Of a stretch of DNA of 64,000 nt, positions 1 through 14,656 are shown in pieces (positions within the stretch are counted from its first letter, which is position 1; each line of letters starts with the position of its first letter). The notes below the pieces were generated by a model. That model saw nothing but the letters and a program-made list of their open reading frames with translations, did not search any database and was not told the origin of the DNA. Source of the stretch: Octopus vulgaris (taxonomy: Eukaryota); assembly GCA_951406725.2 (NCBI GenBank), contig OX597832.1, positions 9,114,001-9,178,000 of the forward strand. Direction: 5' to 3'. The position numbers and the translations under genes were made by a program.

Positions 1-339
1 CAAATTTTCTACAGCGTTTACTTTGTAGAGCCATTATGACATCCAACAACCGGCCATAGATGACTTAACTGTGTAAATTCATTATCTCAGTATAAATGAA
101 CTAATTGTATAACATTATTTCTTAAAATGCTGTCAGGTTTGTGTCTTATACATCCTGTTCGTTGATATCTGTATAATTGCAAAACATATTGATTGTAATT
201 CACTTATTTTTTTCCATACCTCCTCTAATAGAATTTTTAATATTTTCTTCTTAAAATTGAGCATAGAATGTTTTCTAGTTGGAAATAATTATATTATGAA
301 ATCTACGTGCTGTCTGCAGTCGTGTTTATCATGTGTAGG

Positions 340-9129: not shown

Positions 9130-10351
9130 TGCGTGTGTATTTGTGTTTTTCTAAAGCCGAGGTGTATATATCGTTTGTCGTAGAGTCGTTCGGAAGGGGC
9201 CTGCTTTTGTAATAAAGATAGTTTCTTTACTTACTCGTTGGCTCGAGGTTGTATCGTCCCTGAATTGGTAGAGGGGGAAATCCTGAAGCCTGGTGTTTTG
9301 TTGTTGGTGCAAGTATCTATGCGTTGGCTGAATGCTATTTTCCTGTTTAGGGGAATTTTTATCTGGGATCTGTGCAGGACCATTCTTTTTCGCAAACTAT
9401 TTTTTGTTTGGCCTATGTATTGCTCTTGACACCCAGAGGAGGCTAGTGTGTGTATCAGGTTCTGCGAAGCACATTTGAAGTTTCTTTTCACACCGTTGTC
9501 CCTGTTTGAAGGTGAACTCTGATCTCTCAATTAGATAATTGCATATCCCGCAATTGGGTCTTCCACAATTTTTTACTGTCGGCTTCTGTGTTGAAGAGCG
9601 TATTCGGGCTTGTGTTAGGAGACTTTTCATAGATTTAGACTGTCTCTTGCTGTTTTATGATCGTTTGTGTTTGGATAATTGTGTTCATTCTGTGGTCTTT
9701 ATTTAGCAGGGGTATGTTTTGGAGGATGGTGTCGAAGGCTTCATTGTTGAGAGGGTTGTGTGTGGAGATGTAGGGTAAGGCTTTTCGTCGTAAATATTTC
9801 TTTGATTTGGGATGTCTGAGTTCCTGGATGTTGAGTTGAAAGGCACGTTGAATGCATATGTCAATAAGTGAAGGTGGGTAGTTCCTGGTGATGAGGGTAT
9901 CTTTTAGTTCTTGTAGTCGTGTGTCTCTGGTGTTTGCATTAGAAACTATATTACAACCCTTTTTGCTAGATTGAAGGGGATATTCATTGTAGTGTGTCTG
10001 GGGTGGCATGAATTGAATGGAAGATATTGCTTAGAATCTGTAGGCTTATAGTATATATCTGTTTCTATTACATTATTAGATTTCTTAATGAGGATATCGA
10101 GGAAGGGGAGTTGATGCTGGTTATATTCCATCGTGAATTGGATGTTTACGTCCAGTCCATTTAATATTGCTTCGAATTCTTTGAGTTTCTCTATATTTTC
10201 ATGCCAAAGAATGAAATAGTCATCTAGATACCTCTTCAAGTTGGGTTCTATGTAGAGGGAGAAAGTGCTGCCATATCTTTCTAGAACCTTACGATACAGA
10301 CTGATTTCTAGATATCCCATGACTAGGTTGGCAATAGAGGGGGCCATTCGC
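9130..10351 (-). mobile_element. Penelope-like retroelement (Neptune-type): frameshifted RT + GIY-YIG endonuclease, 5'-truncated
   Basis: ORF pieces give RMAPSIANLVMG, KRYLDD, LPFLDI, IYYKPT (PLE RT), RNYPP, linker CGRPNCGIC (CxxxxCxxC typical of Neptune), and QYIGQTKNSLRKRM (GIY-YIG). Several frameshifts; ends at the (TA)n tract at ~10353. Confidence 0.92.
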
Positions 10352-10586: not shown

Positions 10587-11157
10587 TACAGGACACCACA
10601 AATAAACGTAGAACACAACGAGCAACGAAACATAAAATCAAACAAGGAAACGGACTTTTTTTTTTAAACAACGAAAAAACAGAGTACAGGACAAACAATA
10701 CAAGGAAAATTCCACTTCATCAGCTGCCCCTGATGCGTGTTTCGAAGGTAAGGGCAGAACACGGCCAGGCCGAAGCAGTCCTTCCTGCAAAAGGAATTAA
10801 GTAAAATTCTTTTGCAGAGTGGTAAAACAAGTGAAAAGAACAGGACGTAAATGCAATACAAATGAAGAAAAAACAGCAGAAAAAACAGTACAAATAAAGA
10901 AACAGGACAGGGAACCAACAATAATGGCTTTTTTTGCCTAGACGGTGGAAAAATTACTTACATCTACATGTATATATATACATGCATATATATATATGAG
11001 TACAGGGCACCACAAATAAACGTAGACCACAACGAGAAACGAAACATAAAATCAAACAAGGAAACGGACATATTTTTAACAACGAAAAAACAAGGAAACG
11101 GACTTTTTTTAAAACAACGAAAAAACAGAGTACAGGACAAACAATACAAGGAAAAAC
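10582..11157 (-). repeat. Partial direct duplication of a probable PLE-associated repeat between (TA)n tracts
   Basis: gagtacagg.caccacaaataaacgtaga.cacaacgag...acaggacaaacaatacaaggaaaa occurs at ~10584-10710 and ~10998-11156. Confidence 0.7.
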
Positions 11158-11158
11158 C

Positions 11159-11203
<45 letters not shown>

Positions 11204-11789
11204 TATATTACATGTATTTGTTTGTACTTGTATATAGGCATGTACCAACGTTTGTACGTTTATTGTATATATGTATATATAGGGATTTTGCTATATGTAT
11301 GTATAAGTAAATCTATACGTTCTTATGATGCGGGTTGTAAGCGAATGGTTTAAACGGATATAAAATGTAAATTTATTAATTCAATTAATTATGTACGCTG
11401 GGCATACATATTTTTCGATTATAGATAATATGATTTTAAAACGTAACTATAGTTTTAACTTCAAACAATCGGGTATCGAAAATACCGTTAGTTGAACGGA
11501 CCAATGAAACAAAACCAATTTCAATTGTTGTAGCTATCAATATAATTGTACATTTATACATATAACTCTATCGTTTGTTTCACTCTCAAACAAAACTGTC
11601 CGTCGAACGAGATCGTGAGATTCTGGGTAAGAGTTTTTGTGATATCTTTGCTATGGAGTGGTGAAACCATTGTTTTTGGAATTTTATGAAAACGCAAAGA
11701 TTTGGATTTCCGACACTTTTGCATAACGGCAGCCATATACGTGTGTGTGTATAGAAGTTTGAAAAGTAATACACGAATTGATACGTATA

Positions 11790-11940
11790 AAGATAATAAG
11801 ATAAGATAGAAAATGGTAAATTAGAGTTATCATGAAGAACACTTCAGTACCTGCTTCAGCATTTTCGCCTTTGCCAACTGACAATAAAGTAAGAATAACA
11901 ATTAAATTGTGGAAAAATTTAATGAAATGCTACTTTGGAA
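11790..11940 (-). mobile_element. Solo pLTR fragment (same family as 8300-8490)
   Basis: aagatagaaaatg.taaa...gaacac/ttttcagtacc shared with 8360-8410; degenerate hammerhead at 11845-11880. Confidence 0.55.
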
Positions 11941-12049
11941 ATGTTTCTATGCTCTTGAAGTAGGCAGGACATTTTCCTAATTTTTCTGTCTGATTGTCTA
12001 TTTTCTTTTTATGAAGGCTCCGTATGTAGTAGCATATGTGATAAAACAC

Positions 12050-12185
12050 TTAATATATTTGTTAAATTGCTTTTCTTAATTAATTCTTCGTCGAAAAATT
12101 CGAAAAGATAATGTCGGTACTGAAATGCTACACTCCATAACATTATTTTAGCATTTTCTATATTGTCTCATTTTGTTCATATACA
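12050..12185 (+). mobile_element. Solo pLTR fragment, inverted relative to 11790-11940
   Basis: cggtactgaaatg...attattttagcattttctat is the reverse complement of 8365-8410. Confidence 0.55.
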
Positions 12186-12202
12186 TGTATATATGTATAT
12201 AA

Positions 12203-12290
<88 letters not shown>

Positions 12291-12491
12291 TTATATAAGT
12301 AGTTGAATGAATTATCCTAGTATGGATAATTCGGTTAACTGATACCCGGGTAGCAAATTCACGTCAGAAAAACGGTTGGAGCTACATGCCAAGGGCAGAG
12401 ATCACGTGCTTTCGTGTGAAAATTTGTGTGTTTTTTTAATACAAATAAATGAAAGAATGGAGTTGAACGACGATTTAACAAAATTCTTTTA

Positions 12492-12567
12492 TTCTCGACA
12501 TATGTTTCGAAGACTGCATATTCCTAATTTCGAAGGGGTGCATTATGCCGCCTTCTCATCAGGAAAG
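12492..12567 (-). ncRNA. Type I hammerhead ribozyme motif with intact catalytic core
   Basis: Minus strand: CUUUC-CUGAUGA-GAAGGCGGCAUA-(23 nt)-UAUGCAGUCUUC-GAAA-CAUAUG-UC-GAGAA. Helix II pairs 11 of 12 positions, helix III is the palindrome ACAUAUGU, the cleavage triplet is GUC, and AAUAAA follows. Confidence 0.75.
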
Positions 12568-12644
12568 ACAAGGAACTTATGTCAGCATCATGATGAACCA
12601 AAACTGTTAGATGACTGCCCACACGGAGTCCATAGCGATAATTA

Positions 12645-13447
12645 TCGCTAATCAAAAGTAATTACTTCCTTCACTCAGTTATACATGTTCCCCCCCCATC
12701 AAATTATTACCATCAAATTATTCTCCGTTAGAAACAATGCATCGGTCTCCGTGCGTTTTCTAGTGTTCGAAGGCGTCCTGGAACTCTTGAGAAGCAACGC
12801 TTTTTTACGCATCAGCCATTTTTGTCTTCACCTCTCCCACTTCTGCATAATAACTTCCATTATGACCTTATTTCATTCGGATCAATAAACAAAAGTCGCT
12901 GGCCTAAGATCGGGTGATTAGGGAGAGTGGGTAGCCAAAGCCATGTCGGTTTTGGTCAAAAATATTCCACACATCCATGAGCAAGCAAGGCACACGTTTT
13001 GCTGCCCCTCTTTTCATTTGTAATTCTTCATTCAAAATCCGTTGCCAGAAGCTTCAGTTCACACCTGCGATATCAACAATTCTATCAACTTTTTGGCGAT
13101 TGCTCTCTAAGTTCAGCTCATGAATTTCCGTAATGTTTTCATTCCTTTGCAAGTTCGAGAGCTGTTCGTGAACGACATTCGTCTTCAAGCGACAAGTGAT
13201 ATTCCTAAAGCGTGAAATTACCCCATAAAGTTCTGTTTAGCTCATGGCAGCGTCCTTGCAAGAAGTTTGAAACATGACAAATTTAAGACAAAGACGCAGC
13301 ATATGGTTGTACCACTACACCTGACGACGCCGATCAGGATACTGATGACTCAAGGATGCATTAAGAGGCTTGTAACGGCGTAAGACTGAACTACGACGGG
13401 CCTGTCCCGCAGATAACGTTTCCGGTTACTTCTTGTTCCCCCCTCAC
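12645..13447 (-). mobile_element. Degenerate mariner (DD34D-type) transposon
   Basis: Minus strand ~12935-12890 reads HSP*SPDL(A)PSDF, the mariner YSPDLAPSDF motif, with a frameshift; internally deleted. Confidence 0.65.
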
Positions 13448-14656
13448 AACAATTTAAGTGCATATAGATTTGAAATTCAGTGAAATGCAAGATAATAAAT
13501 GTGCATCGTTCTAATTTTTGCAGGTTACCTTAATTCTTCCATGATTCCGTACCTTAGAGCAATGTGGCTCACATGCGTTTTGTGCCAGTGAGCAAAATGT
13601 TATGGTTTGCACATCGTGCCTTTTAAATGAATATGTATTGGCATTATCACCTATTTAGGAAAATGGCGAGTCGAGTAGATAAATAGATATGTAGGTAGAG
13701 AGAGAGAATACATAAGTAGTTAGGTAGATAGGAACGTAGGTAATACGGGCAGACGCGTACACACAATTACACGTTCATACAGAGAGACAGACACACACAT
13801 ACACACACAAGGAGACGGACACACATGAACATATATATACACACTCACTCATATATACACACATTCACCATACAAAACAGACGCACGTACATAATAACAC
13901 AAACTCATATATGTAGACACAGTCAAACAGACGAACGCAAAGAAGCAGTTATACATAAATACACACATATTCATACGTCCACAGAGCACTCAGGCATGCA
14001 CACACAAATACATAAATACGCAGAATGCATACATACATACGTATATACACGCATGCATACACACATACATACATATATACATTCATATATATTTACAAAC
14101 ATTTTTTGCATGCAGGCACGCACGTATTCAGCAGAATTGAAAACAGACAAAAGGAACGAAGCTCTGATAACGGACAGAGTGAACATATTTTAACAAGGTT
14201 GCAAAATCATCGAAAAGTTTAGGAAGACATATAAACAAAAACAAAAAAAACAATAGTACAAGAGTGGAAATTGAACCGGTGAGTGTGTTAGGTTTTAAGG
14301 CCGTATGACATTCTAGACAGAATAAAATTTAATTCAATACACGAATCCACATAGAGTATCTTGCAAGTCTTCCATACCAACTCTTAGGGTTAATTCGCAA
14401 GCACCTCCAGGTATCATCTTTAGATAGAGCGAAACTGTGAATCAGTCTTTGTCAAAGTTCTAGTACAAATCAGACGATTGCATGTACGTGACAGAGAGAA
14501 GCCTACAAAAGACTTATAGCTTCATCATATTGTTGCCTATCATCAACATCTTCATCGTCGTCATCATGATGATGATCATCATTACCATTAATAATATTAT
14601 TATTATAATTACTATAATCATTATCATCATCATTATTTTCATCATTATCATCATCA

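Follow-up and report, generated by a model that had tools for sequence, protein, structure and literature searches.

The window, by which we mean the whole stretch of 64,000 nucleotides analysed here, lies in the microsatellite-rich 2.8 Gb genome of Octopus vulgaris. Its minus strand carries a real hammerhead motif of type I, situated near the 3' end of a Penelope-like retroelement; it is a damaged copy of an RNA that probably cuts itself. The features of the locus are arranged as follows.

12179..12297, no strand assigned: (TA)n target microsatellite at the 3' end of the element (sequence, copy alignment)
12298..12642, minus strand: 5'-truncated Penelope-like copy with the end of the 3' UTR, the hammerhead, the unit end near 12443 and a ~150-nt tail equal to the next unit's start (BLAST boundaries against 30 genomic loci, tandem junction copies)
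12457..12471, minus strand: segment complementary, in tandem copies, to the next unit's start-codon region (pairing probability at least 0.67 in 12 of 15 junction copies, 6 from one array, with no two-sided covariation for this pairing)
12474..12496, minus strand: helix I 3' strand with its extension, pairing with 12571-12585 past an internal loop in the predicted fold (register differs among subfamilies, covariation not counted)
12493-12488, minus strand: AAUAAA (sequence)
12496-12493, minus strand: helix I 3' strand GAGA (sequence)
12499-12497, minus strand: GUC cleavage triplet, predicted cut between 12497 and 12496
12505-12498, minus strand: palindromic helix III ACAUAUGU (self-duplex -7.0 kcal/mol; identical helix III in other families)
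12508-12505, minus strand: 3' core GAAA (sequence)
12513-12509, minus strand: outer helix II 3' strand UCUUC (sequence)
12509..12555, minus strand: enlarged domain II, 47 nt in the window copy, with helix IIa GAAGG/UCUUC, helix IIb GCAU/AUGC, a bulge and a terminal hairpin
12521..12536, minus strand: inner "half-core" CCUUC-GAAA-UUA-GGAA, in intact copies a hairpin loop plus 3' arm, with GAAA solely in the youngest subfamily
12524-12521, minus strand: inner GGAA (sequence)
12527-12525, minus strand: inner UUA (sequence)
12531-12528, minus strand: inner GAAA (sequence)
12536-12532, minus strand: inner motif CCUUC (sequence)
12533..12537, minus strand: 7 nt lost here between short direct repeats, and with them the 5' arm of the terminal hairpin in domain II (copy alignment)
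12555-12551, minus strand: helix II 5' strand GAAGG (sequence)
12556..12562, minus strand: catalytic core 5' half CUGAUGA (near-invariant in alignment A1)
12563..12566, minus strand: helix I 5' strand UUUC, pairing with GAGA 12496-12493 and covarying among subfamilies
12643..12650, no strand assigned: 8-nt inverted duplication of the truncated 5' end (sequence; many copies have larger inverted 5' pieces)

Directly upstream of the hammerhead-bearing element lies a degenerate transposase fragment (12700-13200, minus strand), which we take to resemble mariner/Tc1. The broken remnant of a different Penelope-like element, with the RT C-terminus, linker and GIY-YIG, occupies 9150-10330 on the minus strand, and a possible decayed long-spacer hammerhead sits by it, near 10720-10800.

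Inspection of the minus strand located each element named by an earlier, sequence-only reading: all core nucleotides are there, with GUC at 12497-12499 and AAUAAA after it. That reading had drawn five pairs in helix I, of which four are present and the fifth is a C-A mismatch in the window copy. The motif has the CUGANGA / GAAA / UH core of a type I hammerhead, with helices I-III round it, helix I open and a G10.1-C11.1 pair. A bare core pattern is not above chance (15 window matches, a number reached in 11 of 100 shuffles), and a pairing-aware descriptor (core plus 4 bp in each of helices I and II) matches, in the 64 kb, solely the inner and outer folds of this locus and gives 0 matches in 200 two-base block shuffles of the window. 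The folding z-score of the 76-mer is -3.0. An internal loop is predicted in helix I, but a conserved partner for a loop I-loop II tertiary contact was not found by eye. Contigs from four runs guessed to be RNA cover the motif stretch and reveal neither ends nor strand, so they speak neither for nor against its expression.

The Rfam search that had been proposed as a check did not recognise the motif. The window gave no match at the gathering level, positions 11000-14000 gave none even at E<=10, and six loci drawn from several families gave 0 at the gathering level. When an intact relative is aligned to RF00163, it takes the outer fold (model positions 1-45, with 50 nt as an insert) and scores 19.9 bits, below the gathering threshold of 34. 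Because the long-arm form falls below this threshold, counts of hammerheads in genomes of this kind are probably too low by thousands.

Genome searches for copies were more productive. The best-scoring copies of the window repeat, from 2025 first-look candidates, share 92-95% identity and frequently occur as head-to-head pairs. Exact core patterns match 930 times with a helix II start of GAAGG and 1172 times with GAAGA, ~2,100 in total against 0 in controls, the two patterns using different anchors and both counts being lower bounds. The sequence-only reading had stated that no ORF explains the sequence; this holds locally, but longer copies run upstream into a family ORF ~575 nt upstream of the hammerhead. 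At one locus (L065) this is an 833-aa frame (P0001) with RT and, at its C terminus, GIY-YIG, and its RT region has 426 homologues among 3421 candidates. The frame and its homologues thus show the single ORF with RT and GIY-YIG endonuclease that defines EN+ Penelope-like elements, and a Pfam search of P0001, P0002, P0003 and the neighbouring RT fragment returned nothing above cut-off. Between P0001 residues of about 440 and 710 there is an Asn/Ser-rich low-complexity linker of ~270 aa, where Hydra has a zinc-finger linker. A premature TAA at residue 392 is common to 7 of 23 covering copies (L035, L038, L041, L044, L055, L062, L064), which suggests either that a defective master copy was mobilised in trans or that the position is a mutation hotspot.

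The units are about 3.5 kb long. Of 30 loci containing the element's 5' end, 15 have the hammerhead ~255 nt ahead of the AUG, and on C20 (23,330,000-23,355,000; L274-L281) an older subfamily forms a tandem array with units of about 3.2-3.5 kb; together these give the pLTR anatomy of Penelope-like elements, including partial tandem pLTRs, inverted 5'-truncated arrangement and an optional tail. The Penelope-type pLTR hammerhead suggested from the sequence is thereby borne out by the RT plus GIY-YIG ORF and by the tandem and inverted copies. Six units of the C20 array with an aligned hammerhead have in common two core or helix III substitutions, and for this reason the array was probably amplified at the DNA level. 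The alternative of a non-LTR retrozyme, built of non-coding tandem repeats of 150-450 bp, was rejected given the unit of about 3.5 kb with an ORF, and no such tandem occurs in the window.

By-eye comparison of motifs places the element closest to the Hydra clade. It has the DKT motif, an endonuclease lacking CCHH and with CxxC and CxH round E and N (P0001), and a preference for (TA)n insertion sites, while the RWK position reads RWL in the element DNA. Since the Hydra linker CxCX5C is missing (a single Cys lies between P0001 residues 311 and 792), we call the element closest to Hydra and not a member.

Extracted copies (153 of 156 entered the subfamily statistics, sampling being biased by the searches used) fall into subfamilies with mean internal identities of 0.97 (A), 0.93 (B), 0.87 (CD) and 0.84 (E), and from this highest internal identity subfamily A is likely the youngest. 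Covariation was assessed on 50 natural copies, namely the window copy and 49 drawn at random within groups, with an intact 5' core required. In these, 92.7% of the outer fold is paired and 20 cells are two-sided, and 0 of 500 shuffles did as well; slid controls are 32-48% paired. Pairing reaches 87% in helix I, 96% in helix II and 99% in helix III, with two-sided changes in I and II: helix I occurs as UUUC/GAGA, UUUC/GAAA and UUCC/GGAA among subfamilies, and the fifth helix II pair as A-U, G-U or G-C. Pairs changed on both sides are not clearly more numerous than in shuffles (6 against 4.2; 30 of 500), and the aligned copies are related, which inflates covariation tests. Core conservation is also partly built in, because the copies were found by core-anchored patterns. 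Nevertheless, the outer fold covaries between subfamilies and the inner fold does not, as read from these alignments, so that the search for copies and covariation that the earlier reading had called for came out in favour of the outer hammerhead, with thousands of copies. In intact groups the active outer fold is predicted at medians of 3.3-4.3 kcal/mol above the ensemble, and helix I occupancy in monomers is predicted to be low (medians 0.03-0.5).

The long helix II was rightly singled out. Domain II measures 53-59 nt across the subfamilies (54 nt in intact subfamily-A copies), and its stem-bulge-hairpin shape is kept through five of them despite a shift in hairpin register. The enlarged domain would thus appear to be a maintained arm, and such a long, folded domain II conserved across subfamilies is an unusual feature relative to published Hydra hammerheads. 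It is possible, although we favour the opposite view, that the arm has no job at all and is tolerated filler from local duplication, for which a short loop would serve equally. The sequence of domain II turns over fast (66-67% identity between A and E), slippage at the repeated motif is observed, and other hammerhead families in the genome have a short domain II. Filler would not readily account for a length of 53-59 nt and an arm shape that persist in five subfamilies, register shift included, or for arms of 58-66 nt in two sequence-distinct families.

These other families were found with a long-spacer pattern, which matches 571 times in the genome outside the main family (control 1). Among the 100 matches listed, most come from a second family, whose arm measures 58-59 nt. 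A minority of its loci have Hydra-type ORF fragments nearby, and none was found within 1.5 kb of 17 others. RNAalifold did not recover the hammerhead fold in this family. A hand-drawn fold is 79.5% paired (slid controls 27-46%) and is not above shuffles (51 of 500), so the inner structure of this family is unproven. A supposed tandem of it on C2 is actually a duplicated decayed copy. A third family has a 66-nt arm, with no ORF found in 4 of 4 loci. Both families (L192-L210, L212-L255) carry ACAUAUGU as helix III, and one may speculate that the common palindrome could allow heterodimers between families. Short-arm families with the identical helix III account for 322 matches (control 5); several are seen at L074-L101, where a Hydra-type ORF match is missing near most loci.

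The window copy itself departs from the family in its terminal hairpin. The 7-nt deletion is near-private to it by sequence comparison, as the junction pattern has 2 matches in the genome and the second is a different rearrangement, an unrelated slippage product. With the 5' arm removed, AUUAGGAA becomes free and in the prediction pairs with UUCCUGAU, giving a rod that buries the catalytic core, and the outer active fold is predicted 10.0 kcal/mol above the ensemble, compared with the 3.3-4.3 medians of intact groups. Because of the predicted rod and this cost, the window copy is probably dead, as far as folding models can tell. Of the 10 other subfamily copies shown, 2 (L002-minus and L037) likewise have the rod as their predicted fold of minimum energy. 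This raises the idea of an on/off autoinhibition in the young subfamilies, in which AUUAGGAA leaves its hairpin, pairs with UUCCUGAU and hides the core, delaying cleavage until an element protein or partner RNA refolds it; the anole hammerhead cut solely when protein was added (PMC11167929). However, the inner helix has a median probability of 0.07 in A1 and of 0.0005 in A2, the complement is missing from the oldest subfamilies, and in A2 the outer helix is strengthened by a G-C pair. As the rod is the minimum in some other young copies, autoinhibition keeps a slim chance.

The sequence-only reading had proposed two mutually exclusive folds and possibly a conformational switch; the inner and outer half-cores would then form alternative active hammerheads with two cut sites. 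The minimal descriptor does fit both folds, the inner GAAA-UUA is found at 595 genome matches in the young subfamily (99 of 100 of the GAAGG type among the matches listed), and minimal hammerheads without a real helix III occur in Penelope-like elements (PMC4209133). Against this, the inner motif owes its prominence in the window copy to the deletion; where the inner GAAA stands, older subfamilies have GGAAU, which serves as 3' arm to an AUUCC hairpin; covariation is absent from the inner fold (73% paired, with 478 of 500 shuffles as good); no duplex is predicted for the inner AAUU; and the inner active fold is predicted at +9.4 kcal/mol above the ensemble in the window copy and at a median of +11.3 in 66 subfamily-A copies. 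The favoured alternative in the prediction is the inactive rod and not a second ribozyme. The series of subfamilies suggests, from sequence, that the inner GAAA came about secondarily when the terminal hairpin shifted its register: a second GGAAU arm would have arisen downstream, the first then changing to GAAAU, and the hairpin was kept in its new register. A switch between two active folds is therefore very improbable and is not supported; its appearance reflects a lesion combined with a young substitution. The inner repeat also promotes slippage, as in one copy (L287:1440-1680) in which 23 nt between the helix II repeat motifs have been duplicated in tandem, so that three GAAA half-cores are present.

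Some Naiad elements carry a SECIS for a selenoprotein ORF, but the idea that the domain doubles as one (AUGA, 11-bp stem, AA ... GA) is effectively refuted: its spacing in subfamilies A and B fits what we take to be the SECIS consensus and it lies in the 3' UTR, but AA reads UU in older subfamilies, 30 loci have no common in-frame TGA (each occurs in a single copy), 0 of 7 Cys positions read TGA, and conserved in-frame UGA at Cys positions was not found. The Naiad precedent comes from PMC8557442. Also rejected was AAUAAA as a conserved poly(A) signal, most older copies reading AGUAAA.

We consider it likely, then, that the type I hammerhead of this locus belongs to the terminal repeat of a Penelope-like retroelement that is present in many copies and stands nearest to Hydra, that intact copies cut after GUC via the outer fold, as a dimer or with the element's protein, and that the window copy has been inactivated by its 7-nt deletion. 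Dimers via the palindromic helix III had been anticipated, and the predictions agree: ACAUAUGU gives 2 bp in a monomer, whereas two copies can join in an 8-bp duplex of -7.0 kcal/mol. Earlier work proposes dimer action via such palindromes (PMC4209133) and shows it for axolotl retrozymes (PMC7229834). In a tandem transcript, two copies would pair through ACAUAUGU and then cut, releasing unit RNAs of ~3.5 kb whose 5' end would lie about 255 nt before the AUG.

Cleavage-defined DNA ends were not seen. Relative to the cut, 95 of 208 copy 3' ends fall at +50..69, 80 at +200..219 and 0 at the cut itself, after 130 of 338 pieces had been dropped as matches to the (TA)n flank of the reference; nor is there an accumulation of 5' starts at the cut (2 of 54, both in a single locus). 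The excess of 3' ends past the cut matches the internal initiation of reverse transcription on uncut RNA, with a ribozyme that needs protein, reported in PMC11167929. Reverse transcription may thus proceed mostly on uncut RNA and begin internally at two points, some 55 and 205 nt beyond the cut, and cleavage would process tandem transcripts without setting the DNA ends.

The leader between cut and AUG (L263-L283 junctions; window 12457-12471 and 12300-12345, minus strand) is predicted to be highly structured, with a long-range helix of 10-13 bp over the AUG that encloses a hairpin and an inner helix of 12 bp. An AC-rich single-stranded linker of this predicted leader is where the longer of the two 3' ends of genomic copies falls. 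By analogy with PMC13725137, cleavage and translation might be linked. Tentatively, and with more doubt than confidence, the helix II arm of 54-66 nt could gate cleavage as an aptazyme-like binding site for the element's RT-endonuclease (or as a module for tertiary docking); cleavage would act on the structured leader whose helix holds the AUG, and the protein would switch the RNA between translation and reverse transcription; we regard this as rather unlikely.

By itself the window copy is an ordinary broken transposon fragment. What hammerheads do in Penelope-like elements becomes a testable question in this genome, because its subfamilies form a dated series in which compensatory variants occur naturally, and the window copy adds a natural loss-of-arm mutant.

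Among the literature covered, with most subscription papers outside it, no description of the long-arm form was found, and the accessible parts of PMC3088659 and bioRxiv 10.64898/2026.07.22.740005 do not describe such arms. The long domain II of Selaginella PLE-X1_sMoe and sTam hammerheads (53 nt in sMoe) and the "HHR_half_core" of eight Naiads, with core halves 35-50 nt apart, make the long arm less novel (PMC8557442). These cases differ in being plant endonuclease-less elements or unmodelled, and the portion seen of that paper contains no covariation analysis. The metazoan Penelope-like hammerheads of Cervera and De la Pena (2014; PMC4209133) likewise lie in pLTRs, have a short helix I, a helix II larger than usual and a small palindromic helix III, and belong to copies that are mostly solitary or in inverted pairs, with dimer action presumed. 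In that work helix II has 6-8 bp, whereas the octopus element has a multi-part arm, and its helix I extends past an internal loop, unlike the published ones.

In Anolis Poseidon PAc (Frangieh et al., 2024; PMC11167929), two 3' ends past the cut likewise define a tail and no genomic ends fall at the cut. The tail is ~150 nt in the octopus element and 30-40 in PAc, and the ORF starts ~255 nt after the cut in the former but inside stem II in the latter. The Hydra clade (Craig et al., 2021; PMC8557442) is the nearest comparison. Its elements share the C-terminal GIY-YIG with CxxC-E-N-CxH, DKT and (TA)n targets, and its hammerheads are likewise of type I, near the 3' end, with a palindromic helix III. 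The octopus element differs in its Asn-rich linker in place of CxCX5C, in RWL for RWK, in its unit of about 3.5 kb and in a domain II of 53-59 nt, compared with at most 24 nt in 26 published Hydra rows. The hammerhead listed for Hydra-1_Obim is a different sequence from that of the octopus element, although the RT motifs of the two are, by eye, very similar.
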